DNA of 63,258 bases, filler included, from Nemertoderma westbladi (Eukaryota > Animalia > Xenacoelomorpha): assembly GCA_032718475.1 (NCBI GenBank). It is 4 parts of 4 records of this genome, joined end to end, with 100 filler letters (N's around TTAATTAATTAA, not from the genome) between each part and the next. Parts side by side here need not be neighbours in the genome. Positions count along the whole stretch, not along the records: positions 22,923 to 50,219 come from JAUCBJ010007577.1; 3 more parts are not named here. One strand, given 5' to 3'. Below, piece by piece: positions 22,923 to 50,219 of this stretch. A program made the position numbers and the translations under genes. The notes beneath the pieces are model-generated. The model had not been told where the DNA came from. It was given only the letters and a program-made list of their open reading frames with translations, and ran no database searches. Every line of letters starts with the position of its first letter. Position 1 is the first letter of the stretch.

Positions 22923-25900
22923 TACTTACCTAAACAGCCCCATAAGGTGGACTTACTTACCTAAACAGCCCCATAAGGTGGACTTACTTACCTAAACAGC
23001 CCCATAAGGTGGACTTACTTACCTAAACAGCCCCATAAGGAGGACTTACTTACCTAAACAGCCCCATAAGGTGGACTTACTTACCTAAACAGCCCCATAA
23101 GGTGGACTTTCTTACCTAAACAGCCCCATAAGGTGGACTTTCTTACCTAAACAGCCCCATAAGGAGGACTTACTTACCTAAACAGCCCCATAAGGTGGAC
23201 TTTCTTACCTAAACAGCCCCATAAGGTGGACTTACTTACCTAAACAGCCTCATAAGGAGGACTTACTTACCTAAACAGCCTCATAAGGAGGACTTACTTA
23301 CCTAAACAGCCCCATAAGGAGGACTTACTTACCTAAACAGCCCCATAAGGTGGACTTACTTACCTAAACAGCCCCATAAGGTGGACTTACTTACCTAAAC
23401 AGCCCCATAAGGTGGACTTACTTACCTAAACAGCCCCATAAGGTGGACTTACTTACCTAAACAGCCCCATAAGGTGGACTTACTTACCTAAACAGCCCCA
23501 TAAGGAGGACTTACTTACCTAAACAGCCCCATAAGGTGGACTTACTTACCTAAACAGCCCCATAAGGTGGACTTACTTACCTAAACAGCCCCATAAGGAG
23601 GACTTACTTACCTAAACAGCCCCATAAGGAGGACTTACTTACCTAAACAGCCCCATAAGGAGGACTTACTTACCTAAACAGCCCCATAAGGAGGACTTAC
23701 TTACCTAAACAGCCCCATAAGGTGGACTTACTTACCTAAACAGCCCCATAAGGAGGACTTACTTACTTACCTAAACAGCCCCATAAGGAGGGCTTACTTA
23801 CCTAAACAGCCCCATAAGGAGGACTTACTTACCTAAACAGCCCCATAAGGTGGACTTTCTTACCTAAACAGCCCCATAAGGTGGACTTACTTACCTAAAC
23901 AGCCCCATAAGGAGGACTTACTTACCTAAACAGCCCCATAAGGTGGACTTACTTACCTAAACAGCCCCATAAGGTGGACTTACTTACCTAAACAGCCCCA
24001 TAAGGAGGACTTACTTACCTAAACAGCCCCATAAGGTGGACTTACTTACCTAAACAGCCCCATAAGGTGGACTTACTTACCTAAACAGCCCCATAAGGAG
24101 GACTTACTTACCTAAACAGCCCCATAAGGAGGACTTACTTACCTAAACAGCCCCATAAGGAGGACTTACTTACCTAAACAGCCCCATAAGGAGGACTTAC
24201 TTACCTAAACAGCCCCATAAGGTGGACTTACTTACCTAAACAGCCCCATAAGGAGGACTTACTTACTTACCTAAACAGCCCCATAAGGAGGGCTTACTTA
24301 CCTAAACAGCCCCATAAGGAGGGCTTACTTACCTAAACAGCCCCATAAGGAGGACTTACTTAAAACCTAAACAGCCCCATAAGGAGGGCTTACTTACCTA
24401 AACAGCCCCATAAGGTGGACTTACTTACCTAAACAGCCCCATAAGGAGGACTTACTTACCTAAACAGCCCCATAAGGTGGACTTACTTACCTAAACAGCC
24501 CCATAAGGTGGACTTTCTTACCTAAACAGCCCCATAAGGTGGACTTACTTACCTAAACAGCCCCATAAGGAGGACTTACTTACCTAAACAGCCCCATAAG
24601 GTGGACTTTCTTACCTAAACAGCCCCATAAGGTGGACTTACTTACCTAAACAGCCTCATAAGGAGGACTTACTTACCTAAACAGCCTCATAAGGAGGACT
24701 TACTTACCTAAACAGCCCCATAAGGTGGACTTACTTACCTAAACAGCCCCATAAGGTGGACTTACTTACATAAACAGCCCCATAAGGTGGACTTACTTAC
24801 CTAAACAGCCCCATAAGGAGGACTTACTTACCTAAACAGCCCCATAAGGTGGACTTACTTACCTAAACAGCCCCATAAGGTGGACTTTCTTACCTAAACA
24901 GCCCCATAAGGTGGACTTTCTTACCTAAACAGCCCCATAAGGTGGACTTACTTACCTAAACAGCCCCATAAGGTGGACTTACTTACCTAAACAGCCCCAT
25001 AAGGAGGACTTACTTACCTAAACAGCCCCATAAGGTGGACTTTCTTACCTAAACAGCCCCATAAGGTGGACTTACTTACCTAAACAGCCCCATAAGGAGG
25101 ACTTACTTACCTAAACAGCCCCATAAGGTGGACTTTCTTACCTAAACAGCCCCATAAGGTGGACTTACTTACCTAAACAGCCCCATAAGGAGGACTTACT
25201 TACCTAAACAGCCCCATAAGGTGGACTTTCTTACCTAATCAGCCCCATAAGGTGGACTTACTTACCTAAACAGCCTCATAAGGAGGACTTACTTACCTAA
25301 ACAGCCTCATAAGGAGGACTTACTTACCTAAACAGCCCCATAAGGAGGACTTACTTACCTAAACAGCCCCATAAGGAGGACTTACTTACTTACCTAAACA
25401 GCCCCATAAGGAGGGCTTACTTACCTAAACAGCCCCATAAGGAGGGCTTACTTACCTAAACAGCCCCATAAGGAGGACTTACTTAAAAACCTAAACAGCC
25501 CCATAAGGAGGGCTTACTTACCTAAACAGCCCCATAAGGAGGGCTTACTTACCTAAACAGCCCCATAAGGAGGACTTACTTACCTAAACAGCCCCATAAG
25601 GTGGACTTACTTACCTAAACAGCCCCATAAGGTGGACTTTCTTACCTAAACAGCCCCATAAGGTGGACTTACTTACCTAAACAGCCCCATGAGGAGGACT
25701 TACTTACCTAAACAGCCCCATAAGGTGGACTTACTTACCTAAACAGCCCCATAAGGTGGACTTACTTACCTAAACAGCCCCATAAGGTGGACTTTCTTAC
25801 CTAAACAGCCCCATAAGGTGGACTTACTTACCTAAACAGCCCCATAAGGAGGGCTTACTTACCTAAACAGCCCCATAAGGAGGACTTACTTAAAAACCTA

Positions 25901-28900
25901 AACAGCCCCATAAGGAGGGCTTACTTACCTAAACAGCCCCATAAGGTGGACTTACTTACCTAAACAGCCCCATAAGGAGGACTTACTTACCTAAACAGCC
26001 CCATAAGGTGGACTTTCTTACCTAAACAGCCCCATAAGGTGGACTTACTTACCTAAACAGCCCCATAAGGAGGACTTACTTACCTAAACAGCCCCATAAG
26101 GTGGACTTTCTTACCTAAACAGCCCCATAAGGTGGACTTACTTACCTAAACAGCCTCATAAGGAGGACTTACTTACCTAAACAGCCTCATAAGGAGGACT
26201 TACTTACCTAAACAGCCCCATAAGGTGGACTTACTTACCTAAACAGCCCCATAAGGTGGACTTACTTACCTAAACAGCCCCATAAGGTGGACTTACTTAC
26301 CTAAACAGCCCCATAAGGAGGACTTACTTACCTAAACAGCCCCATAAGGTGGACTTTCTTACCTAAACAGCCCCATAAGGTGGACTTACTTACCTAAACA
26401 GCCCCATAAGGAGGACTTACTTACCTAAACAGCCCCATAAGGTGGACTTTCTTACCTAAACAGCCCCATAAGGTGGACTTACTTACCTAAACAGCCTCAT
26501 AAGGAGGACTTACTTACCTAAACAGCCTCATAAGGAGGACTTACTTACCTAAACAGCCCCATAAGGTGGACTTACTTACCTAAACAGCCCCATAAGGTGG
26601 ACTTACTTACCTAAACAGCCCCATAAGGTGGACTTACTTACCTAAACAGCCCCATAAGGAGGACTTACTTACCTAAACAGCCCCATAAGGTGGACTTACT
26701 TACCTAAACAGCCCCATAAGGTGGACTTACTTACCTAAACAGCCCCATAAGGAGGACTTACTTACCTAAACAGCCCCATAAGGAGGACTTACTTACCTAA
26801 ACAGCCCCATAAGGTGGACTTTCTTACCTAAACAGCCCCATAAGGTGGACTTACTTACCTAAACAGCCCCATAAGGAGGACTTACTTACCTAAACAGCCC
26901 CATAAGGTGGACTTTCTTACCTAAACAGCCCCATAAGGTGGACTTACTTACCTAAACAGCCTCATAAGGAGGACTTACTTACCTAAACAGCCTCATAAGG
27001 AGGACTTACTTACCTAAACAGCCCCATAAGGTGGACTTACTTACCTAAACAGCCCCATAAGGTGGACTTACTTACCTAAACAGCCCCATAAGGTGGACTT
27101 ACTTACCTAAACAGCCCCATAAGGAGGACTTACTTACCTAAACAGCCCCATAAGGTGGACTTACTTACCTAAACAGCCCCATAAGGTGGACTTTCTTACC
27201 TAAACAGCCCCATAAGGTGGACTTTCTTACCTAAACAGCCCCATAAGGTGGACTTACTTACCTAAACAGCCCCATAAGGTGGACTTACTTACCTAAACAG
27301 CCCCATAAGGAGGACTTACTTACCTAAACAGCCCCATAAGGTGGACTTTCTTACCTAAACAGCCTCATAAGGAGGACTTACTTACCTAAACAGCCTCATA
27401 AGGAGGACTTACTTACCTAAACAGCCCCATAAGGTGGACTTTCTTACCTAAACAGCCCCATAAGGTGGACTTACTTACCTAAACAGCCTCATAAGGAGGA
27501 CTTACTTACCTAAACAGCCCCATAAGGAGGACTTACTTACCTAAACAGCCCCATAAGGTGGACTTACTTACCTAAACAGCCCCATAAGGTGGACTTACTT
27601 ACCTAAACAGCCCCATAAGGAGGACTTACTTACCTAAACAGCCCCATAAGGAGGACTTACTTACCTAAACAGCCCCATAAGGAGGACTTACTTACCTAAA
27701 CAGCCCCATAAGGAGGACTTACTTACCTAAACAGCCCCATAAGGTGGACTTACTTACCTAAACAGCCCCATAAGGAGGACTTACTTACTTACCTAAACAG
27801 CCCCATAAGGAGGGCTTACTTACCTAAACAGCCCCATAAGGAGGGCTTACTTACCTAAACAGCCCCATAAGGAGGACTTACTTAAAAACCTAAACAGCCC
27901 CATAAGGAGGGCTTACTTACCTAAACAGCCCCATAAGGTGGACTTACTTACCTAAACAGCCCCATAAGGAGGACTTACTTACCTAAACAGCCCCATAAGG
28001 TGGACTTTCTTACCTAAACAGCCCCATAAGGTGGACTTACTTACCTAAACAGCCCCATAAGGAGGACTTACTTACCTAAACAGCCCCATAAGGTGGACTT
28101 ACTTACCTAAACAGCCCCATAAGGTGGACTTACTTACCTAAACAGCCCCATAAGGTGGACTTTCTTACCTAAACAGCCCCATAAGGTGGACTTACTTACC
28201 TAAACAGCCCCATAAGGAGGGCTTACTTACCTAAACAGCCCCATAAGGTGGACTTACTTACCTAAACAGCCTCATAAGGAGGACTTACTTACCTAAACAG
28301 CCTCATAAGGAGGACTTACTTACCTAAACAGCCCCATAAGGTGGACTTACTTACCTAAACAGCCCCATAAGGTGGACTTACTTACCTAAACAGCCCCATA
28401 AGGAGGACTTACTTACCTAAACAGCCCCATAAGGTGGACTTACTTACCTAAACAGCCCCATAAGGTGGACTTTCTTACCTAAACAGCCCCATAAGGTGGA
28501 CTTACTTACCTAAACAGCCTCATAAGGAGGACTTACTTACCTAAACAGCCCCATAAGGAGGACTTACTTACCTAAACAGCCCCATAAGGTGGACTTACTT
28601 ACCTAAACAGCCCCATAAGGAGGACTTACTTACCTAAACAGCCCCATAAGGTGGACTTTCTTACCTAAACAGCCCCATAAGGTGGACTTACTTACCTAAA
28701 CAGCCCCATAAGGTGGACTTTCTTACCTAAACAGCCCCATAAGGTGGACTTACTTACCTAAACAGCCTCATAAGGAGGACTTACTTACCTAAACAGCCTC
28801 ATAAGGAGGACTTACTTACCTAAACAGCCCCATAAGGTGGACTTACTTACCTAAACAGCCCCATAAGGTGGACTTACTTACCTAAACAGCCCCATAAGGT

Positions 28901-31900
28901 GGACTTACTTACCTAAACAGCCCCATAAGGAGGACTTACTTACCTAAACAGCCCCATAAGGTGGACTTACTTACCTAAACAGCCCCATAAGGTGGACTTA
29001 CTTACCTAAACAGCCCCATAAGGAGGACTTACTTACCTAAACAGCCCCATAAGGAGGACTTACTTACCTAAACAGCCCCATAAGGTGGACTTTCTTACCT
29101 AAACAGCCCCATAAGGTGGACTTACTTACCTAAACAGCCCCATAAGGAGGACTTACTTACCTAAACAGCCCCATAAGGTGGACTTTCTTACCTAAACAGC
29201 CCCATAAGGTGGACTTACTTACCTAAACAGCCTCATAAGGAGGACTTACTTACCTAAACAGCCTCATAAGGAGGACTTACTTACCTAAACAGCCCCATAA
29301 GGTGGACTTACTTACCTAAACAGCCCCATAAGGTGGACTTACTTACCTAAACAGCCCCATAAGGAGGACTTACTTACCTAAACAGCCCCATAAGGTGGAC
29401 TTACTTACCTAAACAGCCCCATAAGGTGGACTTTCTTACCTAAACAGCCCCATAAGGTGGACTTTCTTACCTAAACAGCCCCATAAGGTGGACTTACTTA
29501 CCTAAACAGCCCCATAAGGTGGACTTACTTACCTAAACAGCCCCATAAGGAGGACTTACTTACCTAAACAGCCCCATAAGGTGGACTTTCTTACCTAAAC
29601 AGCCTCATAAGGAGGACTTACTTACCTAAACAGCCTCATAAGGAGGACTTACTTACCTAAACAGCCCCATAAGGTGGACTTTCTTACCTAAACAGCCCCA
29701 TAAGGTGGACTTACTTACCTAAACAGCCTCATAAGGAGGACTTACTTACCTAAACAGCCCCATAAGGAGGACTTACTTACCTAAACAGCCCCATAAGGTG
29801 GACTTACTTACCTAAACAGCCCCATAAGGTGGACTTACTTACCTAAACAGCCCCATAAGGAGGACTTACTTACCTAAACAGCCCCATAAGGAGGACTTAC
29901 TTACCTAAACAGCCCCATAAGGAGGACTTACTTACCTAAACAGCCCCATAAGGAGGACTTACTTACCTAAACAGCCCCATAAGGTGGACTTACTTACCTA
30001 AACAGCCCCATAAGGAGGACTTACTTACTTACCTAAACAGCCCCATAAGGAGGGCTTACTTACCTAAACAGCCCCATAAGGAGGGCTTACTTACCTAAAC
30101 AGCCCCATAAGGAGGACTTACTTAAAAACCTAAACAGCCCCATAAGGAGGGCTTACTTACCTAAACAGCCCCATAAGGTGGACTTACTTACCTAAACAGC
30201 CCCATAAGGAGGACTTACTTACCTAAACAGCCCCATAAGGTGGACTTTCTTACCTAAACAGCCCCATAAGGTGGACTTACTTACCTAAACAGCCCCATAA
30301 GGAGGACTTACTTACCTAAACAGCCCCATAAGGTGGACTTACTTACCTAAACAGCCCCATAAGGTGGACTTACTTACCTAAACAGCCCCATAAGGTGGAC
30401 TTTCTTACCTAAACAGCCCCATAAGGTGGACTTACTTACCTAAACAGCCCCATAAGGAGGGCTTACTTACCTAAACAGCCCCATAAGGAGGACTTACTTA
30501 AAACCTAAACAGCCCCATAAGGAGGGCTTACTTACCTAAACAGCCCCATAAGGTGGACTTACTTACCTAAACAGCCCCATAAGGTGGACTTTCTTACCTA
30601 AACAGCCCCATAAGGTGGACTTTCTTACCTAAACAGCCCCATAAGGTGGACTTACTTACCTAAACAGCCCCATAAGGTGGACTTACTTACCTAAACAGCC
30701 CCATAAGGAGGACTTACTTACCTAAACAGCCCCATAAGGTGGACTTTCTTACCTAAACAGCCCCATAATGTGGACTTACTTACCTAAACAGCCCCATAAG
30801 GAGGACTTACTTACCTAAACAGCCCCATAAGGTGGACTTACTTACCTAAACAGCCCCATAAGGTGGACTTACTTACCTAAACAGCCCCATAAGGTGGACT
30901 TACTTACCTAAACAGCCTCATAAGGAGGACTTACTTACCTAAACAGCCTCATAAGGAGGACTTACTTACCTAAACAGCCCCATAAGGTGGACTTACTTAC
31001 CTAAACAGCCCCATAAGGTGGACTTACTTACCTAAACAGCCCCATAAGGTGGACTTACTTACCTAAACAGCCCCATAAGGAGGACTTACTTACCTAAACA
31101 GCCCCATAAGGTGGACTTTCTTACCTAAACAGCCCCATAAGGTGGACTTACTTACCTAAACAGCCTCATAAGGAGGACTTACTTACCTAAACAGCCTCAT
31201 AAGGAGGACTTACTTACCTAAACAGCCCCATAAGGTGGACTTACTTACCTAAACAGCCCCATAAGGTGGACTTACTTACCTAAACAGCCCCATAAGGTGG
31301 ACTTACTTACCTAAACAGCCCCATAAGGAGGACTTACTTACCTAAACAGCCCCATAAGGTGGACTTACTTACCTAAACAGCCCCATAAGGTGGACTTTCT
31401 TACCTAAACAGCCCCATAAGGTGGACTTTCTTACCTAAACAGCCCCATAAGGTGGACTTACTTACCTAAACAGCCCCATAAGGTGGACTTACTTACCTAA
31501 ACAGCCCCATAAGGAGGACTTACTTACCTAAACAGCCCCATAAGGTGGACTTTCTTACCTAAACAGCCCCATAAGGTGGACTTACTTACCTAAACAGCCC
31601 CATAAGGAGGACTTACTTACCTAAACAGCCCCATAAGGTGGACTTACTTACCTAAACAGCCCCATAAGGTGGACTTACTTACCTAAACAGCCCCATAAGG
31701 TGGACTTACTTACCTAAACAGCCCCATAAGGTGGACTTACTTACCTAAACAGCCCCATAAGGTGGACTTACTTACCTAAACAGCCCCATAAGGAGGACTT
31801 ACTTACCTAAACAGCCCCATAAGGTGGACTTACTTACCTAAACAGCCCCATAAGGTGGACTTACTTACCTAAACAGCCCCATAAGGAGGACTTACTTACC

Positions 31901-34017
31901 TAAACAGCCCCATAAGGAGGACTTACTTACCTAAACAGCCCCATAAGGAGGACTTACTTACCTAAACAGCCCCATAAGGAGGACTTACTTACCTAAACAG
32001 CCCCATAAGGTGGACTTACTTACCTAAACAGCCCCATAAGGAGGACTTACTTACTTACCTAAACAGCCCCATAAGGAGGGCTTACTTACCTAAACAGCCC
32101 CATAAAGAGGGCTTACTTACCTAAACAGCCCCATAAGGAGGACTTACTTAAAAACCTAAACAGCCCCATAAGGAGGGCTTACTTACCTAAACAGCCCCAT
32201 AAGGTGGACTTACTTACCTAAACAGCCCCATAAGGAGGACTTACTTACCTAAACAGCCCCATAAGGTGGTTTTCTTACCTAAACAGCCCCATAAGGTGGA
32301 CTTACTTACCTAAACAGCCCCATAAGGAGGACTTACTTACCTAAACAGCCCCATAAGGTGGACTTACTTACCTAAACAGCCCCATAAGGTGGACTTACTT
32401 ACCTAAACAGCCCCATAAGGTGGACTTTCTTACCTAAACAGCCCCATAAGGTGGACTTACTTACCTAAACAGCCCCATAAGGAGGGCTTACTTACCTAAA
32501 CAGCCCCATAAGGAGGACTTACTTAAAAACCTAAACAGCCCCATAAGGAGGGCTTACTTACCTAAACAGCCCCATAAGGTGGACTTACTTACCTAAACAG
32601 CCCCATAAGGAGGACTTACTTACCTAAACAGCCCCATAAGGTGGACTTTCTTACCTAAACAGCCCCATAAGGTGGACTTACTTACCTAAACAGCCCCATA
32701 AGGAGGACTTACTTACCTAAACAGCCCCATAAGGTGGACTTAATTACCTAAACAGCCCCATAAGGAGGACTTACTTACCTAAACAGCCCCATAAGGAGGG
32801 CTTACTTACCTAAACAGCCCCATAAGGAGGGCTTACTTACCTAAACAGCCCCATAAGGAGGACTTACTTACCTAAACAGCCCCATAAGGAGGGCTTACTT
32901 ACCTAAACAGCCCCATAAGGTGGACTTACTTACCTAAACAGCCCCATAAGGTGGACTTACTTACCTAAACAGCCCCATAAGGAGGGCTTACTTACCTAAA
33001 CAGCCCCATAAGGTGGACTTACTTACCTAAACAGCCCCATAAGGAGGACTTACTTACCTAAACAGCCCCATAAGGAGGACTTACTTACCTAAACAGCCCC
33101 ATAAGGTGGACTTACTTACCTAAACAGCCCCATAAGGAGGACTTACTTACCTAAACAGCCCCATAAGGAGGACTTACTTACCTAAACAGCCCCATAAGGT
33201 GGACTTACTTACCTAAACAGCCCCATAAGGTGGACTTACTTACCTAAACAGCCCCATAAGGTGGACTTACTTACCTAAACAGCCCCATAATGTGGACTTA
33301 CTTACCTAAACAGCCCCATAAGGAGGACTTACTTACCTAAACAGCCCCATAAGGTGGACTTACTTACCTAAACAGCCCCATAAGGTGGACTTACTTACCT
33401 AAACAGCCCCATAAGGAGGACTTACTTACCTAAACAGCCCCATAAGGTGGACTTACTTACCTAAACAGCCCCATAAGGTGGACTTACTTACTTACCTAAA
33501 CAGCCCCATAAGGAGGGCTTACTTACCTAAACAGCCCCATAAGGTGGACTTACTTACCTAAACAGCCCCATAAGGTGGACTTACTTACCTAAACAGCCCC
33601 ATAAGGAGGACTTACTTACCTAAACAGCCCCATAATGTGGACTTACTTACCTAAACAGCCCCATAAGGAGGACTTACTTACCTAAACAGCCCCATAAGGA
33701 GGACTTACTTACCTAAACAGCCCCATAAGGAGGACTTACTTACTTACCTAAACAGCCCCATAAGGAGGGCTTACTTACCTAAACAGCCCCATAAGGTGGA
33801 CTTACTTACCTAAACAGCCCCATAAGGAGGACTTACTTACCTAAACAGCCCCATAAGGTGGACTTACTTACCTAAACAGCCCCATAAGGAGGGCTTACTT
33901 ACCTAAACAGCCCCATAAGGTGGACTTACTTACCTAAACAGCCCCATAAGGAGGGCTTACTTACCTAAACAGCCCCATAAGGTGGACTTACTTACCTAAA
34001 CAGCCCCATAAGGAGGA
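22923..34017. repeat. 31-bp satellite (~350 copies) derived from the V-ATPase exon/intron junction
   Basis: Plus-strand unit CTTACTTACCTAAACAGCCCCATAAGG(A/T)GGA, period 31. The last copy is the end of the coding exon itself. Confidence 0.98.
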
Positions 34018-35416
34018 TGATATATCGGCCTCCGAACAACATCAACCACATCTCGTTGGTGGATTTCTCCGCCAGGAATTTCTTCTCATTGATTACCATC
34101 CAGAGTGCGAACAGGAACATAATGGAGCCGTGGCCGCAGTCGCCGAACATAACGGCGAAGAGGAAGGGGAATGTGATGAGGGTGAATGGCGCGGGGTTGA
34201 TCTCGCGGTAGTCGGCCACCCCGTAGGCGTCGACGATGGCCTGGAAGCCGTTGGTGAACTTGTTGGTTCGGTGGTACGTGGGCGGGGTGCGTCGGGTCGC
34301 CATGGTGTTTATGATGGCGGGTATATCGGTCCCGCTCCGCTCGGTGCCGCGTCGAGCCGCCAGGTTCACTCGGTCCAACTCGCTCGACGGACACCAACCC
34401 TCCGCGATTATAGCCTTCTGCGTGTTACAGAGATTGAGCGTGTGGTAGACGGCCTTTATCTTCTTCACTTTACGGAACCACACCCGTATAGACCTCGCGG
34501 CGTTGCTGAGCAGCCTGGTCTGGTGCTCCGCGGTCTGGGACAGCACCGTCTGTATGTCCTCGATCCGGGTCATCACGCCCATGGACATCTCGCGCCGTTC
34601 CGCTTGGCTCTCCGGACACGGGTACATCGTCGCTTTATAACCCTCGCAGATCTTTCGAACTTTCGTCTTCAGCTGTTCCCCCTGGAAGAAAATGATGAAG
34701 ACGCATTTGGAGACCTCCTCGCCGGTGACGGGGTCCTCTAACGGGGTCTCTATTTCGGTCTGGCGGAGGAACACGTTCCCGCGACAAGCGCGCCACAACA
34801 TGCGTTCGAACGAGGGAACCCGTTCCCTCGCGATCACGCCTGCGATGAAGCCGAACTTGGGCGACTGTTGCGAGTCGCCGGAAGAACTTCCGATCGGCGC
34901 CTCCGCGCTCAGCAACGAGGTGCTCATCGACTCCTCCGAGCGGCTCGTCTGACCCAACGTCAACTGCGCTTCGTCGAAAAAGGTCTGCGTCTTACGGAGA
35001 ATGTGTTTCAACTCGGTCAACTCCAACTTGTTCTTCATCAACGTCTCCTTATTGGAATTAACTTCCTTCAACTCGTTCTCTAACTTCTCGAAGGTCAACT
35101 CGAGGTTGAACATCTCGCTGGGCATCGGCGTCTCCGGGTTTTCCCCGCTGTCCGGCGGCGACTGGTTTATACACTTGCGGCATTCCTTCTCGATGTAGCG
35201 GAGTTTCCGTTCCATCTCATCGCAGCGGCGCACCTCGTTGATGTACTTCCGTTGGAACTCGTTCACGTTCTCGTTTAGGTCCGAGAACTGCACGAGGCCA
35301 AGCTCTCCGAATTCCGACACACACGCGTACGCAGAGTCGTTCTGTAGAAACATCTGGATCCGCGTCATCTCCTCCGAACGGAAAGATATACCGACGTCTC
35401 GCTCTGAGATATTCAT
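33996..35416 (-). CDS. ATP6V0A: V-type proton ATPase V0 subunit a (116 kDa / Vph1 family), first coding exon, ending in phase 2
   Basis: [106 protein letters not shown]. Ends TTT AG|GTAAGT. The paralogue number cannot be assigned. Confidence 0.96.
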
Positions 35417-36890
35417 AGCTCGTTTTGTTAGTCTCAGTAGGCCAAAGTCCAGAAGTCTGAATATCAGTACAGCAGTACTGCAGTAAGTAGAGCATGTACA
35501 GAACTGCTGAACTACTGAACTACAGCAGTACCGGTAGAGGATGACCGTGACAGAGTGACTGGGTGTATGTCAGTATGTAGGCCTACCTGCCTACTGCTGC
35601 ACTGCTGTAGTATGGTGGCCGTTGCTGCCACTATAAAACTCTTGATAAAATATTTAAATAATAAATAAGTGGAAAAAATATCTTGAAGAAAAAATAATAA
35701 AAAAAAATATATCTTAAAAAAAATCAGTAAAATAAAATATCTTAAAAAAAATCAGTATAATATAATATCTTTAAAAAAATCTCAGTTTTAAATAATATCT
35801 TGAAAAAAAAGGTAAAAAAATACTCAGGAAAAATTTCCATAAAAAATAAATACTGTTAACATCCCACGTGGCCCAGGGCTGCCATCACCCCATAATCAGA
35901 TAACAGTTGGCCCATGCCCATGGCTGCCATTAAAAAAACTAACAGTAAAAAAAATAAAATACCCCCTCGTGGCCAAGGGAGGGTTGCCACTGCCCCCAGA
36001 ATCAGTAATAGTATTGGCCCATGGCTGCCATTCCATTAATACAACTAATAGTAAAAAAAAATAAAATACCACCTCGTGGCCCACCGCTGGAATTGGAATT
36101 GTTTTATTGACATCAAAGTATGAAAACGAAAGTAAATGTGGTAGAGTATAAACTAACACCGACATAAGAAACACATAATTTAAGACGGACTTGCACATGA
36201 GATACTACCGGTAGTTCGAGTTATACTAAAATATAAATGAAATATGATGTCGGGGATAGCCCCATGAGACAATGTCTTGTTTCCATGGGGGTCCCCTGGA
36301 AATACATGTCCAGTAGTTTAAAACTAAATGAAAGAACACATTAAAATATCACGCGGATTATTAAAATATTTTACTTAAAATTCCTACAGTATAAAGATTT
36401 ACTAAAATGAGTTAAATAAAAGGACATACATTAAAAGTATAACGATTTAATAAAAAGATTTGGTATAAAATAAGCATATACTGTAATATAATATAAATAA
36501 ATAGAAATCGGTAAAGAGGCAGATATTTTGGCGACACACATAATTTGGATTGTTTAAAATACATTAAAATAATTACCCGGGTTGAAGCATTAAAATATGA
36601 CGGACAATATGATGGACAGTATAGGTGGACAACTATATAGGCCACTTAAGTAAATTATTATTAAATATTAGTAATATTACTAAATATATTAAATTATATT
36701 ATATTATATTATATATATTATATTAAAAAGATATTAAATTATTAAAGAAAAAAATTATATTTAATAATAGTCAATAATCCAATCTTAATAATAACCAAAA
36801 AATAAAAAAGATCCTGCTACCACTATGGCAGTAATGTGGTACTTACTACCTGCATTTTGCAACGTTAGGCCTATTGCTGACCGAACGAAA

Positions 36891-36940
36891 ACTGCCCTGG
36901 TTCATGTGGGGATCGAACCCATGACATACGGGAGATGTGA
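36891..36940 (-). mobile_element. Partial tRNA-derived SINE head (inverted copy of 37260-37309)
   Basis: ACTGCCCTGGTTCATGTGGGGATCGAACCCATGACATACGGGAGATGTGA. Confidence 0.65.
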
Positions 36941-38644: not shown

Positions 38645-41617
38645 AGCCGCGTTGTCACTTATGACACCCTCTTGGCCCTCTAGGCGATAGTTAGACAACA
38701 GTGACACCATTGCGTATCGGATTGATTAATTAGGATAATCAATTAAACCCTAATTAGGAGTCGTAAGACACCTATTGGGGTTTAATTGTACTAATTAATT
38801 GATGACACCTGTCAATTAGGGTCTAATTGGCCTATTTAGGAGGTGTCACCCAGACAGTCTGGCGCCAGTCAGTGGGGTCCAACTGTCGCTGAGCCGCCCA
38901 AGACCCTACTACTCCCGATAAACATAGCCTATTCATTACTTAGTTGATCAAGAGTGGGTTGGTTTAGCCCCGTCAACTAAATAAGTCATTGAGGGCTATA
39001 GCGCCTAGGGCACCATTGAAGGCAAAGGCTTGATGCGCATCTGCATTAGAGATGATACACGCCCCGCCCTGTCTATACTGGATGCTCTTCTACCAGTGTT
39101 AGGTAACCTAACCCAGGAGGCACACTTGGCTCAGGGTGTAACAAATGGACCCCAACTGTGTAACAAATCAACCAATGACTAGACATGCTGACAAGGTCGG
39201 CGGAAGGTAATCAACCAACGGCGACCTACTGCGAAGACGCTTGTAGGAGTTGCGACCCCAAGCGGTTTACTCCCGCAACTGAAAGATATGAGTATAAGAA
39301 CCCTCCAGGAGAAATACCGGCTCGGTCGTCGCCCGGGTCAACAAGGACCGCGTCCCTCAGTGGTACACCAGGCTGGGATCGATAAATTGGCTACTGGAAC
39401 GGAAGACAGAGAAGAAAGAAGAACCAACCTGTTGAAATGTAAAAAGACACTAAAGATTGCTAAAGATTGCTGATTGAACGCACGCACGCTGAAAACACAT
39501 ACCAAACAGGGTGACATGGTCGCTCTGGCAATGGAATATAACATCGACATCATCTGCATCCAAGAACATCGGATTTGTCATGAAGACACTGCCATGAAGT
39601 ACAATGCATTGGAAATGAATGGATGTTAGTAACAAGCTCAGCAGTAAGAAACTCGGCCAATGCATCAATTGGTGGAGTAGGAATTCTGCTAAGCCCATTT
39701 GCACTTAAGACCCTAAACAACATCGAATCTATAAATTCCAGGGTTATGATAGCAACATTTGATGCTACAGTCCAACCAATGCCTCAGAGACAGAACAAGC
39801 AGTCAAGTTTTATGAAGAACTGACTGGACTTATAAAGGACATTCCGAAACATAATGTTAAAGTCATTGCTGGTGACCTGAATGCGCAAATTGGCCCAGAA
39901 GACATCAAGGGTTACACCTATAACACCAGTTCTAACAGAAATGGGTACTTACTTTTCAACCTAATGGAAGAATGTGAATTGATACCAACAAACAACACAT
40001 TCGAAAAGAGTAAGGGGAAGCTATGGACCTTTCAATACCCCAATGGAACCAAAGCACAACTGGATTACATCCTTATAAACAAAAAGTGGAGAAACAGCAT
40101 GATCAACTGCGAGGCATACAGCTCGTTCAACCTAATTGGTTCGGACCACAGAATTGTGACTGCAGAGATCAGACTCTGTTTGAGAGCCAGCAAATCCAGG
40201 ACAAGCAAGCAAATCAAATATGACTGGGAGAAACTCAGAACTGACAATGCTGTAAAGGATGCTTATATAGTAGAAGTTCAAAACCGCTTTGAAGCACTTC
40301 AGTCAATGGATGAAGACCAATCCACCAATTCAATATACCAGAATATAATAACAGCCCACAAGGAAACAGCTAAGAGGCATATCCCCCAGAAACCTAAACG
40401 AAAACAGTATGTGCCATGGCAAAACTCTGAGGTTACTTGTAAGAGAGAAGATCTTAAGATAGCCTACAAAGTTAAAATCGAAAAACCAACAACCGAAAAC
40501 ATTAACAAGGTTGAGAAAGCTAAGGACGATCTTAAATTGGCCTACAACATCAGCCAGGAAAAGTTCATACAGGATAAAACTGAAGCAATTACAACTGCTC
40601 ACATACAGCAACAATCAAGACTTACCTGGCAAACTGTAAATGAGGTATCTGGTCGGAAAAGTTGTGCAAAGGGGCGCCTCAAAGCCGATAGTCCTGAAGA
40701 ACGTGTTGGGAAGTGGACAAATCACTTCAGCAACTTGGTGGGCAGCCACCAAACATCGAGGTCAGCCCTACAAGGAAAATATATGACAAGACACTACCTA
40801 TAGAAACAGGGGGTTTCACACCTGCCGAACTCCAAAGAAGCCTTAAAAGCATGTCCAATAATAAAGCGAGTGGATTAGATGAAATCCCAGCGGAGGTATG
40901 GAAAACCGGAGTTCTAAACAGACCATTATTGAATGTTTGCAACAGGTTGGATTGCATATAAATGCTACAAAGACCGAATTCATGACCTTTAATGTTGATG
41001 GAAACTTGACAACCATTGGTAATAATCAACTACGGAAGGTCGATGACTTCCAGTACCTTGGATCATGGATAGAGAGTAGCAAAAAGGACATAGAAGTTAG
41101 GAAAGCAAAGGCTTGGGTAGCTCTATCAAAAATGGATACCATCTGGAAATCAGATCTCTCCAGGCACCTGAAGACTAAGTTCTTTCGAGCCACAGTGGAA
41201 AGTGTATTTTTATACGGGGGTGAGACCTGGATATTGACTAAATCACTTGAACAACGAATTGATGGTTGCTACACAAGACTACTAAGGGCAGCCCTAAACA
41301 TCAGCTGGAGACAACACATGACAAACGCCGAGCTTTATGGTACAATACCTGCAGTATCAACCACCCTCCGTGAACGCAGATTAAGATTCAGTGGGCACTG
41401 CTGGCGAAGTAAAGACAAGGTCATACCAGATCTACTTCTCTGGCAACCAACTCATGGAAAGCGTAGTCGTGGACGACCGGCCATAACATATATAGATCAA
41501 CTTGAAAGGGATACTGAACTTGGGAGAAACGAAATTGCGACAACTATGGAGAATCGGGAAACCTGGAAGGATCTCATTTCCACTGTCCGAGTTCGCTCGA
41601 CCTAGTAGTAGTAGTAA
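38645..41617 (+). mobile_element. RTE-clade LINE with frameshifts and an internal deletion of the RT core; (TAG)n tail
   Basis: APE motifs NARTL, DIICIQEHR, GGVGILL, AGDLNAQIG, QLDYIL, GSDHRIV. KASGLDEIPAEVWK then jumps to VGLHINATKTE, FQYLGS, LRFSGHCWR, RGRP. TAGTAGTAGTAG at 41603. The 5' boundary is approximate. Confidence 0.9.
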
Positions 41618-42169: not shown

Positions 42170-42486
42170 AAAATAATGTTGTTTGTGTTAAAATAATGTT
42201 GTTTGTGTTAAAATAATGTTGTTTGTGTTAAAATAATGTTGTTTGTGTTAAAATAATGTTGTTTGTGTTAAAATAATGTTGTTTGTGTTAAAATAATGTT
42301 GTTTGTGTTAAAATAATGTTGTTTGTGTTAAAATAATGTTGTTTGTGTTAAAATAATGTTGTTTGTGTTAAAATAATGTTGTTTGTGTTAAAATAATGTT
42401 GTTTGTGTTAAAATAATGTTGTTTGTGTTAAAATAATGTTGTTTGTGTTAAAATAATGTTGTTTGTGTTAAAATAATGTTGTTTGT
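42170..42486. repeat. 20-bp minisatellite (AAAATAATGTTGTTTGTGTT)n, ~16 copies
   Basis: Perfect tandem repeats. Confidence 0.97.
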
Positions 42487-43078: not shown

Positions 43079-43253
43079 TTAAAATAATGTTGTTTGTGTT
43101 AAAATAATGTTGTTTGTGTTAAAATAATGTTGTTTGTGTTAAAATAATGTTGTTTGTGTTAAAATAACGTTGTTTGTGTTAAAGTAATGTTGTTTGTGTT
43201 AAAATAATGTTGTTTGTGTTAAAATAATGTTGTTTGTGTTAAAATAATGTTGT
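43079..43253. repeat. Second block of the same 20-bp minisatellite, ~8-9 copies
   Basis: Same unit and orientation. Confidence 0.97.
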
Positions 43254-44806
43254 GTAAAAGCTTTTGTGGGATAACTGATACGTTTGCCTTTGCTGGCCAG
43301 TTCCCCCCCAGTCGCTAGAATACTCTCAAAGGGATTTATAACTAAAATAGTGCAAGCTACCAGCTTATTGGCTGATGTGCTGTGTGGAGATATCTGGGCT
43401 CAGTTTAATCGGCCAACTAGCTTAGAGAGGTTGCTTTAGCCTTGCTGTCCGTATCGGCCAATAGAATTTGAGTGGGCGTTAATTTCGACCTATCCCAGGG
43501 CTACTGAACTGAATTTCCTATCTCACTGCTCATCCTCTGTGTTGGACGGGAGCTTCGGGGAATAAGAGTTTTTGGTATACTCGTATAGTAGTAGTAGTCA
43601 TATGATTTTATATGATTCTGTTGTTGTGTTCCCATTTTCGCCATAACACCGGCTTTTTGGGAAGAACTCTAGTAAAACTGCTTAAATTATCGAAAGTATA
43701 AACTGTTACCGAACCTTAACGCATCTTAACATACTTACTTAATTTAACTGCATTAATCATATTGTTTGTACTGTTATTTTACTGTCAGTTATTAATTGTA
43801 CCTATTTGTTGATGGAAATATTGCTCTTTGGATAATACGGATAAATCACCCAAATTTCCCAATTTTCTTGATACACTACAGGTTAGAGAGGCGGGCTATA
43901 TATAACAATTGCGATTTATATTAATGTGGTGTGTATTGAATCTAATGTTATTTAGCAGACCCTACATGAGTCAATTACTGCTCTCTTTATGTGTGATCAA
44001 ATATACTGACGGTCGGCAGAATAGTGTGTATGATTGTGATTGGTAACAAAGTATTTCCTAAAGAATACGCTTTATACTTTAATCATAAGCGGTATCGTTG
44101 CGTTTTAGTATAAGTCTTAGTTCTGTTTAAATAGATAAAGCGCCACGTCCTAAAGGAACTGTTAATATTTCCCGAAAGCCAATAATATCTGTCAGAGATT
44201 AATTATTAACGATCTATCGAATAATACAGTAGGTATACACTGCAACCTTACACTGCAATAATACAATTTAAGCATCCGAATTCAGCCTCCCGGGTGTAGA
44301 TCCATCGGGTGAATGATCGCGCATGGGCTGACTTCGGCTAATGTTTTGCGTATTAGCATAAAATATTGTCGTATGCTAAAGTGGTTTTAATTAACTAAAA
44401 GACATATAAATTTTGGCAGGTTAAACTGCTAAAGGTCTTCAAAAGCGCGAACAGTAACAGTTTATAATCTTATTGCAGTAGGCAATAAGGTTGCAAAATA
44501 CCGTAGTGACTGGTAAAACTGAACCGGTACTTCTGTAGGTCAGTAGGCCTAACTGTCATCACCGGTACCGGTACTGCTGTACAAGTACATTAGTATTATT
44601 CGATTTTGATTATTGTATACCGGTAGGTCTTGGTACTTAATCAGGGAACGGCCGCCCTGATTTTTATTTGAGATTCTACTTATTTCTGTCGGTTTTATTT
44701 ACTAGTAGGCTAATATTGAGCAGAAGGCGTGTGACCCTGCTCAGATTGTTCAGATAATTGTAGGCTGAGCTGCTGTCTGACTGTTGTTGAGTTTGGAGAG
44801 ATTACG

Positions 44807-45268
44807 GCGTGTGTAGAGTTTGTCTGATAAAGTGCCGTTAGTAAGTTGGGGCAGCCATATGCTGTAAGGTCAATCCCCTCTTAAAGAATAAGTCGTACTA
44901 CCGTGTTAGAACGCATACTAACTAACAGTTTCAGAGTCTGCATATACTGTAGTTTATTTAGGCTTGATCGTAGTCTGCCAGTGTTTTGGCCTGTGTTTGT
45001 TTGTGTGGTCTGTTCAGGTACCGTAATAGTTATTACTCAGATATTTTGTAGGCTGGATTGTTGTCTAGCTACTTTTAGGTCTGAAGGGATTGCTGCGTGT
45101 GTAGAGTTGTCTGATAAAGTGCCGTTAGTAAGTTGGGGCAGCCATATGCGGTAAGGTCAATCCCCTCTTAAAGAATAAGTCGTACTACCGTGCTAGAACG
45201 CATACTAACTAACAGTTTCAGAATCTGCACATACTGTAGTTTGTTTAGGCTTGATAGTAGTCTGCCAG
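44807..45268. repeat. ~175-bp direct repeat, period ~288 bp, upstream of the gag ORF
   Basis: 44807-44981 matches 45095-45268. Confidence 0.9.
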
Positions 45269-46616
45269 CGTTTGGTTTGTATTCTGTTTGAGTATTCTGT
45301 ACGGGTAGCGTAATATTTATTATTCAGAGTTTATGCGGTTATTCGCAACATTCATGTCCCCAAGTTTATTCCTACAGTAATTGTGCTTGTTATACATACC
45401 GTTATAGTTAAACTAACCCCGGTACTACATTAGGGCTGCTTGGCGTAGGTAAAGACTGGAGATTTTGTGCTTCGGTCACTCCAGCAGATGCCGTGGTTCT
45501 TTTAACTGTTCAAGTATATTTAACTACTGATTATTTGTTATACCGGTACTTGTACCTAATTTAGGGTTTAGTGTACAGTGCTTTCCGAAGTAATTAGTGT
45601 AGGCAGTATATTTGTGTTGTAAAGTAGTTGATAGGCACATTCGTTAGCTCTATTAGCTTCTGGGTAGGAACAATCCGTGATACATAATGTAGTACCTATA
45701 GCGATACGGTTATAGGTCGTCAGGCGGTGGTATTTTCCTATCTGGACAGTACAGTATATTTACTACTACTTATTATTTCAAATACCGTAGTACCCTGTCC
45801 GTTGTAATAACCAGAATTCTAACCCTTTGTTAGGCTGGTTTGTAGACTTCCTGTAAAATTACCCTAAAAAATTTCGTACGTAATATTTTGTTGTGTTTAA
45901 TTAGAGAATTAATCTCACCAATATCGTAAGTAATTTGTAGTATTAAGTAACTTAGGTAAATTAGAATTATCAGTTTTAGTGTCAAATAAATAGCACTTCA
46001 CTGAGAGCGCACAGCTTCCGTGTAGTGACCCCCAGAAATAATAACATTTATTTCAAATATTGACAAAACCCCTTTTAAACGGGTATATATCTATTATAAA
46101 TCAACTCAAAAGATTTATAAATAGTAGGCCTGTCATACAACAACTAGGTCTCACTACCAGTTGGACTACTGCTTAAATAACGGTAATAAAGTACGTTAAA
46201 GTAACTAAGTAACCCTAAAATATTCAGGAATTCAATTATTCTAAAAATAATTGACATACCGGTACTTACTATAGGCTTATTATATTTATCTCTATAAATT
46301 TGAGCTGAAATCATACCGGTACTCTGTAATTAATTCTAGGTCATAATTATACTTATATATACTACTGTACTATAAGTGTAAACTGTATACCGGTATTCAC
46401 GATAGGCCTATTATATATTTATATATATCTGTGCTAAATTTATATACCGGTACTCTGTGACAAACCTAGTTCACAATACTTATATATATTATAAGTGCAT
46501 ACCGGTATTCTAATATACTGCAATAAATTACCGGTACTAGGCCAGTGGTTATACTGAATTACTAGACTTGCTTTAACTGTAACTATAGCAGTAAGCCTTC
46601 AACTGTATAGCTAAAC

Positions 46617-49244
46617 ATGTCTGACACTCAGCAAAACCTGTCAGACAGTCTGATCGATACAACTATCTGTGATTCAGATAGGAGTGTGGAGCGAATAAGA
46701 AAGGAGTTCGGCTCACCTCCTACTGTAAAAAAGGTCATCCCTCCAGTAGTATCAGACCCTAGGCTAGTCCACCATAGGTCCATCATAGGCACTCGGGCGC
46801 AGGTCAAACGGAACCAAGAGGCAGCTGTCCTATCGCAGCAACATCTTGGTCAAGAACCTACTTCCCAGCGATCCGATAGCTCCAGCAGTTCGGATACTGT
46901 AGAGCTGACCCCCGAAGGCGGAGTGCAGATGGCTGCTACAGTCTACTCGGACCCCCTTCTTACCCTTCCTGCTGCAGTGCTAACTACTATATTCATTGCG
47001 GTTGAAGAACATCAAGCCGACTGGGCGAGGAATAAGCGAGCGACCCAAGACAATTACGCGGGATACGCCAGGGAAGAATTGATATCTATTGTTGAATCAC
47101 AATGGAACTTTCCCGGACTCGGACTCCCGTTGGATCTGTCTGAGGCTACTTGGGAAGATATACACAGGATGGGAGTGGCTAAAGATACAATGGATCCAGC
47201 TGTTTGGAAGAGGTCAGCAGCAGGATATGTGCAGGGATTCTTCGGATCCTTGGATCGATTGGAAGAACAACTGTTTCGACAACCTCACGGACCTCAAGAG
47301 CAGGAAGAACTGCTATATCAAATACGCGAAAGAACCCTACGCATACGACTAATCCTCTCAGCCTTTGAGGAAACTTCCAAAAGAAGACAGGACACGTCGC
47401 TGCAGGTTGCTGTCAAAACTTGGCTACATCGAGTAGATCTCAAAGTACAGGAAACGGCCCAGTGGAAATCCCAGCTGGCTGAGAGATCAACCTATGAAGA
47501 ACCAACTGATGTCACCCTTGCTCAAGCGGAAAGCGAAGAGGCCGCCGAGAAACCGCGAACTAGAGACGCTATCGACATTTATTTGTCCGACTATCAGCGA
47601 TTCCTAGGAGACGAAGAGTTGAGGAGACGGCTGTCTGGACTTTCCCCTAATAGTGAAGGAACCAAGCTTGTGTTGGACTCAATCGATGCCGAAATGTTAG
47701 CTGCAAACCAAGCTGAATGTGATGAAAAACTCCGCCTCACTAGAGTCCGAGAAGAACAAATAAAGAAAAGAAGGATAGAGGAACAAAAGGCGGCGGCTAT
47801 GGCGGCGGCTATGGCAGAAGCAGAAGCAGAAAGAATAGCAGCAAGGGTAGCAGCGGCAGAAGCAGAAGCAAAAGGAAGGGCAGCGGCGGCAGAAGCAAAG
47901 GCAGAAAGGGCAGTGGCCGAAGCAGAACGGAGAGCCTCTGAGCAGACTACCCAACTGGAGTTGGAAAATCTGCAAGAGACACAAGACAGTATAAATAAAC
48001 AGTTTACTGCTAATCAAATGCAGATGATGAGAAAATCTACTCCCAAGCGCCAGGGATACACATCCTCGGAGGAAGGCGAGACCACCGATCCTGAAGGCGG
48101 AGGAAATAGATCTCATCTAAGTAGGCGTAGAAAAACATCTTACCGTCGCAAATTGCCTGATTTGCCCCCAGCTGTTAAAAGGCAGCTAACTAGCACAGAC
48201 TTAGGTCGTGCAGAACCCATAGAACAATTCATCCAGGTCAAAAGACTCCCTACTATAGTCGATGAACCTGAAATCATTAGGCCTGTTGTTCCCAAAGTCA
48301 CTTCTGTGCTAGAGACCCCTACACTTCTAGAGCTTAACTCTAAATTCCCTTTACATAGTACTACACTGCCTGTACCCGGTGGAACCGTCCATGCAAATAC
48401 CCCTGTCCAGACAGCAGAGAGAGAAATCAATAATTTGTCTCCCGTCGTCCCGCGTCAGCCCGCTACTATGTTGGCGACTCCCGCTTCGGCGGTTGAGTGG
48501 GTGGAAGAGGGACGGCGGGGGATGAATCTCCTGCTGGGACAGATGCAGGAGACTGTCCACCAACTTAAGGGAACAGTGAGGGAAGGTAGAGCAGAGTTGC
48601 AAGAGGTGCAGCAAAGTATCGCGCTAGAACGCGACAAATTAGTCAATATCAAAAAGGGCATACCAATACCCCCTGTAACATTGTGTCAACCTGTTAGGTC
48701 TGAAGTATTACATGCGCAAGGTGTGGAGCCTACACGCATCTATACTGCTAGTGAAGTTGAAACTCCTATAGCAAACCCTATTAAGGGTGATTATAGGCCT
48801 GTTATTAATGATATTCCCTATAGAACTGATAATGATCCGAGAAATTTATATACCGATAATTCGATATTAAATAACACGATGGCCCAAGAAAGCTTTACGC
48901 GTCAGATGGCTAGAACAGAAGCCCGCCAAGCTGTCAAAGTGGGAGAGATCGTCAAATTCAATGGAGATGAGATGAAATGGTTACCTTTCAACGAATATTA
49001 CAAAGATAGCATACAGAACTCTGTACTATCTAACGGAGAGAAACTTAGATTCCTCATCAAGTGTTTGGAAGGACCTCCCAAGTTAATGGCGTTAAAGTTT
49101 ATTGGACATCCAGAAGGATTAAGACAAGTTTGGGATACAGTGGTTCGCAGTGTCTCCATGGTCACGTTCATCTTCTCGCGGGTTTCTGCGAGACTCCAGG
49201 AGGAGCCGAAGATGTTTAACGATTTGGAGAAGCAATCGTTGTAG
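46617..49244 (+). CDS. BEL/Pao-like gag ORF, truncated at ~49140 and reading through into antisense V-ATPase exon sequence
   Basis: 875 aa open frame with an Ala/Glu coiled coil. C-terminal [28 protein letters not shown] fits the DUF1759-type gag pattern. No zinc knuckle or pol follows. Confidence 0.72.
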
Positions 49245-49262
49245 AGGAGGCCAGTGTAGACG
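49141..49262 (-). CDS. ATP6V0A: V-ATPase subunit a, next coding exon (apparently truncated)
   Basis: Acceptor ..TACATTACAG|C GTC TAC ACT GGC gives (S)[22 protein letters not shown]. This is the conserved continuation of LLMGLF, and the phase matches (AG+C = Ser). Confidence 0.9.
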
Positions 49263-49988
49263 CTGTAATGTATAAAGGTATCAATAAACCCATCAACACA
49301 TAAAGTAAAAATACATTTTCTTCGGTCGTGGCCAGGGATTACGCACAAAGTCTGACGACTTATTTACTGTGCCCAAATTCGAACACTCAAGTTAGTTACA
49401 ATTAATTTGTGGGACAAGCTACAAAGCAAGACAGCCTTAGCATATGGGTACCATTAACGAGTTGTCTGTCGTGGTCGTCTGTCGTGAATTTTTGAGAGCT
49501 AATAACTCGGTTATTACTTGATCAAATTAAACCAAACTTGGTACTGGTACGTACGTATGTAGTCCGTCAAAGGTTTAGAAAGAACCTGAAGGTTGGTGAA
49601 AAACGAACGAACGCAACGAGTTTTGCAGTGGACCATCTGCCATAAATCAGCAGTTACTCGCCCATATTGGAGATTTTGCATGGTTATAAAGGTCGTCAGT
49701 CTGCGTTTGGGAAATTTGAGTTTGACAACGTTTGACAAAACAGGACGAGTGCAACGAAGTTAATGAAGGAGGAGAAGATTATTGTAAAAATAAAAATGTC
49801 ATGCTTAACTTAAATAGCCATAGTTAGTAGTTTTACAAATGACAGTTAAAGTGTAAAAGGGAGAACTGAAATGGATCTCTGTTTTTTACAACCAGTTTAA
49901 CGCAAACTGAAAGCATCACTCAATATATTTTTGGAAAGACAGTTTTCAAATATCTAATAAAGACTGGTATACTTTCTTATATAGCCGG

Positions 49989-50219
49989 TTACCTAAACAA
50001 CCCCATAAGGAGGACTTACTTACCTAAACAGCCCCATAAGGAGGACTTACTTACCTAAACAGCCCCATAAGGAGGACTTACTTACCTAAACAGCCCCATA
50101 AGGAGGACTTACTTACCTAAACAGCCCCATAAGGTGGACTTTCTTACCTAAACAGCCCCATAAGGTGGACTTACTTACCTAAACAGCCTCATAAGGAGGA
50201 CTTACTTACCTAAACAGCC
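49989..50219. repeat. Same 31-bp splice-junction satellite, ~7 copies running into the contig end
   Basis: Same unit and orientation as 22923-34017, with a unique-sequence boundary at ~49989. Confidence 0.97.

Follow-up and report, generated by a model that had tools for sequence, protein, structure and literature searches.

How the downstream exon of a gene came to stand before its upstream exon was the question raised by one contig of Nemertoderma westbladi, which occupies positions 22923-50219, between N-linkers, of the stretch analysed here (63,258 nucleotides, referred to as the window). The window was built from short leftover contigs. The features of the contig were located as follows.

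22923..33995, minus strand: long arm of the satellite, about 357 units of 31 bp with 345 AG|GTAAG motifs
33996..35416, minus strand: exon 1 coding sequence of V-ATPase subunit a, 1,421 nt (473 codons plus 2 nt, phase 2) with no intron, matching PF01496 positions 2-445
35417..35556, minus strand: 5' untranslated part of exon 1, its extent given by the reach of the X4 contig described below
39763..41605, plus strand: open reading frames of a decayed non-LTR retrotransposon, an endonuclease piece and a C-terminal piece (PF14529, E 2.9e-4, below the cut-off)
46617..49139, plus strand: gag-like ORF of a high-copy element (PF03564), cut inside a DUF1759-like domain
49139..49140, no strand: head-to-tail junction, direct orientation with reversed order, apparently blunt and with no inserted bases
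49140..49262, minus strand: first 123 nt of exon 2, cut by the junction, matching PF01496 positions 445-488; the loose end of the X4 contig equals 49233-49262
49263..49988, minus strand: 3' portion of the intron outside the satellite, 726 nt, with the acceptor at its end
49989..50219, minus strand: short arm of the satellite, 7.5 units, the true downstream end of the same array

On the minus strand, the order was therefore satellite end, intron, exon 2 (from 49262), junction 49139|49140, gag-like ORF, LINE, exon 1 (35416-33996) and satellite. The coordinates and the PF01496 matches bore out the original prediction that the downstream exon precedes the upstream one, and both contig ends were found, as it had stated, in one 31-bp array in the same orientation. 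Its claim that joining the ends restores the gene stood in part: exon 1, array, intron and the start of exon 2 followed one another with the splice in frame, but no whole gene resulted, exon 2 (full length about 1,665 bases) being cut after 123 nt. The match of exon 1 to PF01496 reached E 4.5e-165 and 551 bits; that of exon 2, which begins at 49262 behind a CAG acceptor, reached E 3.4e-11 and 42 bits, and both lay above the cut-off of 30.7, placing the gene in this family. The closest protein relatives were 61-67% identical and all listed with PF01496, and none exceeded 67% identity among the 120 best matches listed per search; the animal is a metazoan on a long branch.

Sequencing runs X1 to X5, none of them known to be the assembled individual, were compared as assembled contigs; X5 held next to nothing matching exon 1 and was dropped. 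Exon 1 showed no differences from the X3 and X4 contigs and one from the X1 contig. Record 17 of X4 (3,229 nt) matched 33996-35556 with no differences and then passed into 49233-49262. This contig splices exon 1 to exon 2, and the two exons therefore belong to one gene. X4, although labelled 'DNA?', was read as RNA on the evidence of its spliced contig, a longest record of 11.6 kb and empty intron bins.

The sequence on the other side of the junction belongs to a mobile element. The gag-like ORF matched positions 1-43 of the 148 of PF03564 (E 0.001, 19.5 bits, below the cut-off of 25.4), the domain being cut at profile position 43. It matched thousands of contigs in X1-X3, and the search for protein relatives returned none, with a single low-complexity match. 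A DUF1759-like gag is presumably that of a BEL/Pao LTR retrotransposon, and we take the non-LTR element at 39763..41605 to be RTE-like. A crude CA..TGG scan of 43201-46620 for a 5' LTR with primer-binding site gave 3 matches, none of them recognisable; the pol of the gag-bearing element would lie beyond the junction. DUF1759 is given as a gag domain in the available text of PMC5933816.

The two sequences that meet at the junction were found unbroken elsewhere. Behind 49139, 13 gag contigs of X2 and 7 of X3 leave the window sequence, and gag was intact beyond the junction position in other copies of the element. The original prediction had proposed searching for the intact gene, and an unbroken exon 2 was indeed recovered: contigs of X1, X2 and X3 matched 49140-49358/9 with no differences and continued for 1,534, 1,542 and 748 further bases absent from the window, of which the 1,542 bases equal the transcript length after exon 1 minus 123. 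Three of the four runs (two samples) thus passed unbroken through 49140 into other sequence, and among the 32 listed of 34,351 pieces no contig of X1, X2, X3 or X4 crossed the junction. Logan contigs are simplified by Minia3, according to the available part of PMC12424806, and a weak branch beside high-copy gag may be lost.

The two sides of the join shared no sequence, and the contig extended 1.08 kb from the junction in one direction and 26.2 kb in the other. Read on through the junction, the spliced product would stop at codon 562, in antisense gag. No length errors were found in 325 G4 runs and 354 T3 runs of the contig, and self-comparison revealed no near-100% inverted duplicate outside simple repeats. 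We infer that the permuted order did not arise by chance, because a random join would almost never fall 14 kb upstream of exon 1 of the same gene. The junction is real in the contig and ordinary in kind.

The contig ends were then compared with each other. Their terminal overlap was limited to a trivial 17-nt in-register match, and they abutted in the higher-order pattern of the array with 14 bases missing. Joined with this 14-nt gap, they reproduced a context (242 nt upstream and 134 nt downstream) that occurs at two other places in the array. Equal abutment was obtained in 2.0-2.9% of 10,273 random cuts, in 4.3-7.3% in unit-level nulls and in 37-48% of 325 true joins, the score being modestly selective (9 for a four-unit gap versus 11). 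These results give a modest hint that the contig is one turn of 27,311 bases. Flye reportedly loses tens of bases in closing circular contigs (PMC6966772, available text).

In X1, the contig depth was 38.3 over exon 1 and 24.7 over exon 2, which is the direction of a heterozygous duplication, but contig depth is not copy number. In X3 the depth was level (7.67 and 7.14, likewise contig depth and not copy number). The X1 ratio proves nothing, because X3 is level and depth does not give copy number.

Our tentative reading is that the contig may well be one turn of a roughly 27.3-kb head-to-tail tandem duplication private to the assembled individual. A break in the upstream gag and another in exon 2 would have been joined without homology, as in non-homologous end joining. 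The resulting order would be flank, two copies of a unit consisting of gag end, LINE, promoter, exon 1, satellite intron and exon 2 start, and then the rest of exon 2. An assembler would break such a duplication within the 11-kb satellite and emit the junction path as a separate contig. The upstream copy would encode a protein truncated to 561 residues, without the C-terminal membrane half, while the last copy would stay whole and leave the number of working genes unchanged. Gene amplification for dosage was considered and rejected: about 1,540 nt of exon 2 are missing from the unit, and with no complete gene in it dosage does not rise. The variant is likely neutral or mildly harmful, and if a duplication, it would be an ordinary private structural variant with no working gene copy gained.

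In line with this reading, the junction connects, in direct orientation, a downstream position with an upstream one of the same locus, and intact versions of both broken sequences exist (exon 2 in X1-X3, gag in other copies). The accuracy of the contig, the absence of fold-back duplicates outside simple repeats in the self-comparison and the register of the abutting ends also speak for it. Direct orientation, reversed order, one locus and a blunt join are what a tandem duplication with a non-homologous junction shows among structural variants in general. A typical one would also present a second copy and raised depth, whereas the present join is seen as a leftover contig. Against it, the junction was crossed by none of the contigs listed for X1 to X4, the exon 2 contigs passed 49140 unbroken, no flanking sequence linking two chromosomal copies was seen, and the lopsided reach and abutting ends are predicted more simply by a circle cut once.

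The original prediction had offered a duplication, an extrachromosomal circle or an assembly loop; this was the right set and an intact locus does exist, but the junction appeared in no listed contig, the unit holds no complete gene and a misjoin is unlikely. A 27,311-bp circle that left the locus by excision, was closed in vivo by blunt ligation and was cut once in the satellite during shearing is possible and on the unlikely side. About 14 bases would then have been lost at end repair, the contig would derive from one or a few reads, and the circle, carrying promoter, exon 1 and a cut exon 2, would be a by-product that amplifies no working gene. The abutment with a 14-nt gap, rare in random cuts (2-7%) and commoner in true joins (37-48%), speaks for it, as do the blunt join, the lopsided reach and the absence of the junction from the listed contigs of other samples; the abutment test is however modest, and an assembler loop yields the same picture. 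The contig is also without homopolymer errors, which is seldom so for a raw 27-kb read; read correction could account for the clean sequence. That circles can form when broken ends are ligated is described in the available part of PMC9578701, and the accessible text of PMC11850965 reports the EPSPS eccDNA of Amaranthus palmeri (about 400 kb), with one 395-kb circle present as a contig in a long-read assembly. Like these eccDNAs (PMC9578701, PMC11850965), our contig has an end-to-start junction and a length fitting one turn, and circles can surface as long-read contigs; unlike the A. palmeri circle, it is 27 kb long compared with about 400 kb, carries a gene that is truncated instead of whole, and was absent from the listed contigs of other samples. 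The open-access literature yielded nothing closer than these papers on circles as singleton contigs in animal assemblies. A wider version, that the contig is a full natural 27,311-bp circle from a housekeeping gene in a healthy animal, that the 11-kb array makes the locus fragile so that circles or duplications recur, and that leftover contigs already hold such circles, findable by permuted order and abutting ends, is improbable. If it is a circle, leftover contigs can be whole eccDNA from normal tissue and would offer a cheap survey of large circles in non-model animals.

A join made in the tube, by ligation of a fragment into a circle that was later amplified or re-cut, or by a template switch in whole-genome amplification, is unlikely, although the junction was not seen in independent samples and the window consists of short leftover contigs. 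In the available text of Lasken and Stockwell 2007 (PMC1855051), MDA chimeras are mostly shorter than 10 kb, 85% inverted and mostly with 2-21 nt of complementarity, and the present join is not of this common type. Reversed order does occur there, and complementarity, absent here, is found in only 27.6% of the direct joins spanning more than 10 kb (PMC1855051). Such direct joins are intermolecular and unrelated to map distance, which makes a landing in the same locus improbable; unlike the chimeras of that source, this join is blunt, keeps direct orientation and bridges at least 27 kb inside a single locus (PMC1855051). The window also contained no fold-back duplicates, and MDA HiFi data show low chimera rates in the accessible portion of PMC11660948, which is not decisive here. 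That the assembler alone misjoined the sequence, with no underlying molecule, is very unlikely: the join has a very high-copy element on one side and the contig ends are both satellite, but unique exon sequence meets gag without shared bases. Overlap and graph misjoins need shared sequence, and a pure misjoin is unlikely because the join has none. Least credible is a deletion between adjacent paralogues, with exon 1 from one gene copy and exon 2 from another, for which an identical junction geometry is expected. In X4 these two exons are spliced together, one contig per run covered exon 1 in X1, X3 and X4 with no second variant among the contigs listed, and the same unit variants occurred in both satellite arms. 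This reading is largely refuted, and the diverged paralogue that the original prediction had named as a possible refuter is excluded by the X4 spliced contig.

The intron with its donor array is a real feature common to all readings of the contig. The array of about 365 units (11.3 kb) makes up the bulk of a roughly 12-kb intron, its unit variants are common to both arms, and its higher-order repeats are up to 38 units long. The 31-bp unit consists of the final 22 nt of exon 1 followed by the first 9 nt of the donor and so spans the exon-intron boundary of its own gene. The satellite is thus a 'mirage' repeat of a known kind, with about 365 copies of the splice donor of exon 1. The repeat donors were near-consensus (8 of 9 matches to the consensus). 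The X4 contig exits the window at 33996 into exon 2, which is splicing at the authentic, first donor (one contig of one run, from which rare forms would be missing). Intron birth by tandem duplication (the Rogers model, as in the available part of PMC3087553) was rejected, because 726 nt of ordinary intron follow the last unit and exon 2 does not start with GT.

Mirage minisatellites are reported from Adh3, BflGb6 and BflGb9 of amphioxus, with 3-6 units in BflGb6 (PMC3087553, available text), and the 37-bp VNTR in IVS7 of human F7 has 5-9 donors (PMC1557585, available text). As in both systems, the unit lies across an exon-intron boundary, the repeated donors stay silent and splicing takes the one farthest upstream (PMC3087553, PMC1557585). 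Unlike F7 and BflGb6, the present array runs to about 365 units, spans 11.3 kb and has higher-order repeats, and no larger donor array was found in the open-access literature beyond these cases. The assembled transcript takes the first donor, as the F7 scanning rule has it, in an array with about 40 times as many copies, and about 365 donors in a row offer a natural setting in which to test how 5' splice sites are chosen and whether splicing is recursive at AG|GT points. The depth in bin 33950-34046 was 1,301 in X1 and 3,930 in X3, values from which the unit count is not derivable and which indicated that the array was present in both samples.

Contig 2 (JAUCBJ010007577.1; 22923-50219, 27,297 nt) carried a permuted V-ATPase subunit a gene with the following layout.

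22923-33995 and 49989-50219: 31-bp array, both arms in the same orientation
35416 to 33996, minus strand: exon 1 coding sequence (PF01496 profile positions 2-445, E 4.5e-165)
from 49262, minus strand: start of exon 2, after a CAG acceptor (PF01496 positions 445-488, E 3.4e-11)
46617-49139, plus strand: gag-like ORF (DUF1759 positions 1-43 of 148, E 0.001, below cut-off)

Exon 1 comprised 1,421 nt without an intron and ended in phase 2; its splice to exon 2 was in frame and read through. The exons were separated by the gag-like ORF, repeats and a decayed LINE. The closest protein relatives were 61-67% identical, and those named among the best matches listed were animal, plant or fungal PF01496 proteins. 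The PF01496 matches and coordinates bore out the original prediction that exon 2 lies ahead of exon 1 and that both contig ends fall within one array in the same orientation, so its observation was confirmed; its interpretation was partly supported. GC3 over the first 473 codons (33996-35416), which are intron-free, was 0.80, the window as a whole being about 39% G+C. Two coding exons seem to be all the gene has; animal orthologues usually have many.

Of the seven sequencing runs listed, four came from organism A (shares 0.27-0.69). One run (X4) was read as RNA, though labelled 'DNA?', on the basis of the splice, a longest record of 11.6 kb and empty intron bins. Its 3,229-nt contig matched 33996-35556 with 0 differences and left the window at 33996, where its next letters equalled 49233-49262, the start of exon 2. 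In each of X1, X3 and X4 a single contig spanned exon 1 (1, 0 and 0 differences; 31 rows shown, 458 further). Exon 1 and exon 2 belong to one gene, and since the X4 contig splices them together, an exon 2 from a diverged paralogue was excluded.

Region 46600-49980 was compared in four runs, X1 and X2 being one sample and X3 another study. A search for an intact gene with a complete exon 2 had been proposed, and unbroken exon 2 was seen in three of the four: contigs of X1, X2 and X3 had 0 differences over 49140-49358/9 and ran on outside the window for 1,534, 1,542 and 748 bases, respectively. The X4 transcript continued for 1,665 nt after exon 1, which, less the 123 nt in the window, gives 1,542, the run-on of X2. 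Judged by these lengths, exon 2 is likely undivided and about 1.67 kb long, with 123 nt kept in contig 2. An intact gene exists. About 362 residues were expected past exon 1 by homology with the protein P0009, and splicing of the permuted unit would give a product that ends at codon 562, within antisense gag sequence, ahead of the region holding the conserved LRLWALSLAH motif in P0009; the arginine of this motif is essential for proton transport.

At the junction 49139/49140, contigs of other gag copies left the window behind 49139 (13 in X2, 7 in X3), their next letter differing from the window, and exon 2 contigs began at 49140, with neither overlap nor gap between the two alignments. The join is blunt, provided that alignments were carried as far as the bases still match and that the gag copy here was like the others. 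No junction-crossing piece occurred among those listed (32 of 34,351 pieces, 24 of 662 loose ends). Graph simplification by Minia3 could have pruned a weak branch next to gag, whose depth is thousands-fold. The stronger point was that exon 2 contigs were unbroken at 49140 in X1, X2 and X3: Logan contigs, which come from Minia3, a graph-simplifying assembler, are described as holding each 31-mer once with graph links kept (PMC12424806), so a retained junction branch should have cut them. Exon 1 and exon 2 contig depths were 38.3 versus 24.7 (X1) and 7.67 versus 7.14 (X3), an ambiguous result, depth being no copy number. The junction is probably, though not provenly, absent from these samples; it represents a known kind of head-to-tail join, either private or rare.

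Unlike the junction, the array was common to the X1 and X3 samples: its bin depth was 1,301 and 3,930, compared with exon depths of 38 and 7.7, making the satellite a shared feature. Each unit joined 22 nt from the end of exon 1 to 9 nt of donor, and the intron therefore begins with 345 + 7 copies of AG/GTAAG. Beyond the last unit the sequence opened with a GT start of a different form and continued as 726 nt of ordinary intron. Reading past exon 1 into the array met an immediate stop, and the assembled X4 transcript used the first donor (one contig). The array is of the type known as 'mirage' minisatellites in amphioxus (PMC3087553) and as the F7 IVS7 minisatellite, in which, out of 5-9 donors, splicing uses only the one furthest upstream (PMC1557585). 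This array is larger than the mirage arrays described there, and no larger donor array was found in open-access literature. About 365 tandem donor copies with higher-order repeats were counted (22923-33995 and 49989-50219).

The contig ends overlapped by only a trivial 17 nt. Variant units formed higher-order patterns (longest repeat 38 units), which made a register test of the ends possible. The short arm (49989-50219) starts with 134 nt that recurred seven times in the long arm (22923-33995), and with 14 nt missing, the long-arm end equalled the sequence preceding two of these copies over 242 nt; the remaining in-register gaps reached at best 17, 118 and 118 nt. Random cuts did as well at 2.9% of 10,273 positions (2.0% allowing only lost bases), unit-level nulls gave 7.3% of 327 and 4.3% of 1,488, and at unit level a four-unit gap scored 9 versus 11 for the 14-nt gap. 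True joins cut out of the array passed in 37-48% of 325 cases. The likelihood ratio was roughly 5 to 20 in favour of the contig being one turn of 27,311 bp, in which the intron would measure 12,044 nt. A circle cut once would account for this, and an assembler loop would do so just as well; when Flye, which may not be the assembler used here, closes a circular contig, tens of bases are often lost (PMC6966772). Homopolymer runs of the array had length errors in 0 of 679, which favoured a consensus or corrected read.

The order, the breakpoints, the single gene, the truncated exon 2 and the intact allele elsewhere were all observed. This arrangement would follow if two breaks, separated by at least 27 kb, had been joined end to start with no homology involved; on the chromosome it would be a tandem duplication with the first copy truncated and the last whole. 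We tentatively place tandem duplication foremost, at somewhat under an even chance. Excision of the piece and closure into a circle is a less probable, rather doubtful course, and a library product is unlikely. Inverted joins make up 85% of MDA chimeras, and the direct joins that span over 10 kb ignore map distance (PMC1855051); near-identical fold-backs were not found in the window, where long inverted satellite arms were 74-95% alike. A misjoin with no molecule behind it is very improbable, as no sequence was common to both sides of the join. Of the predicted choice among duplication, circle and assembly loop, the order and the intact allele stood; a pure misjoin lacked shared sequence, and the unit holds no complete gene. 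No version of the explanation yields an extra working gene, which sets this case apart from the EPSPS circle in Amaranthus palmeri (PMC11850965).

Other elements were located in the window.

981-4266: LINE-like element with reverse transcriptase (PF00078, E 1.8e-27)
4332-5213: 48-bp tandem array, next after this LINE-like element
36891-37309: MITE-like element, 50-nt inverted ends
37483-37938: MITE-like element, 35-nt inverted ends, G/C homopolymer arms
42168-42486 and 43079-43253: one 20-bp tandem repeat, two blocks 98-100% alike, about 590 nt of other sequence between
44750-45328: 287-nt tandem duplicate upstream of the gag-like ORF
50358-56174: satellite blocks of alternating orientation, 74-95% alike
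54909-55631: G+C-rich ORF fragment between satellite blocks, without match in a Pfam search
57005-58156, minus strand: G+C-rich ORF, without match in a Pfam search, inside 56697-58413, between 223-nt inverted repeats 93% alike

The 287-nt duplicate possibly lies within the 5' region of the gag-like element, and 56697-58413 is likely a DNA transposon.
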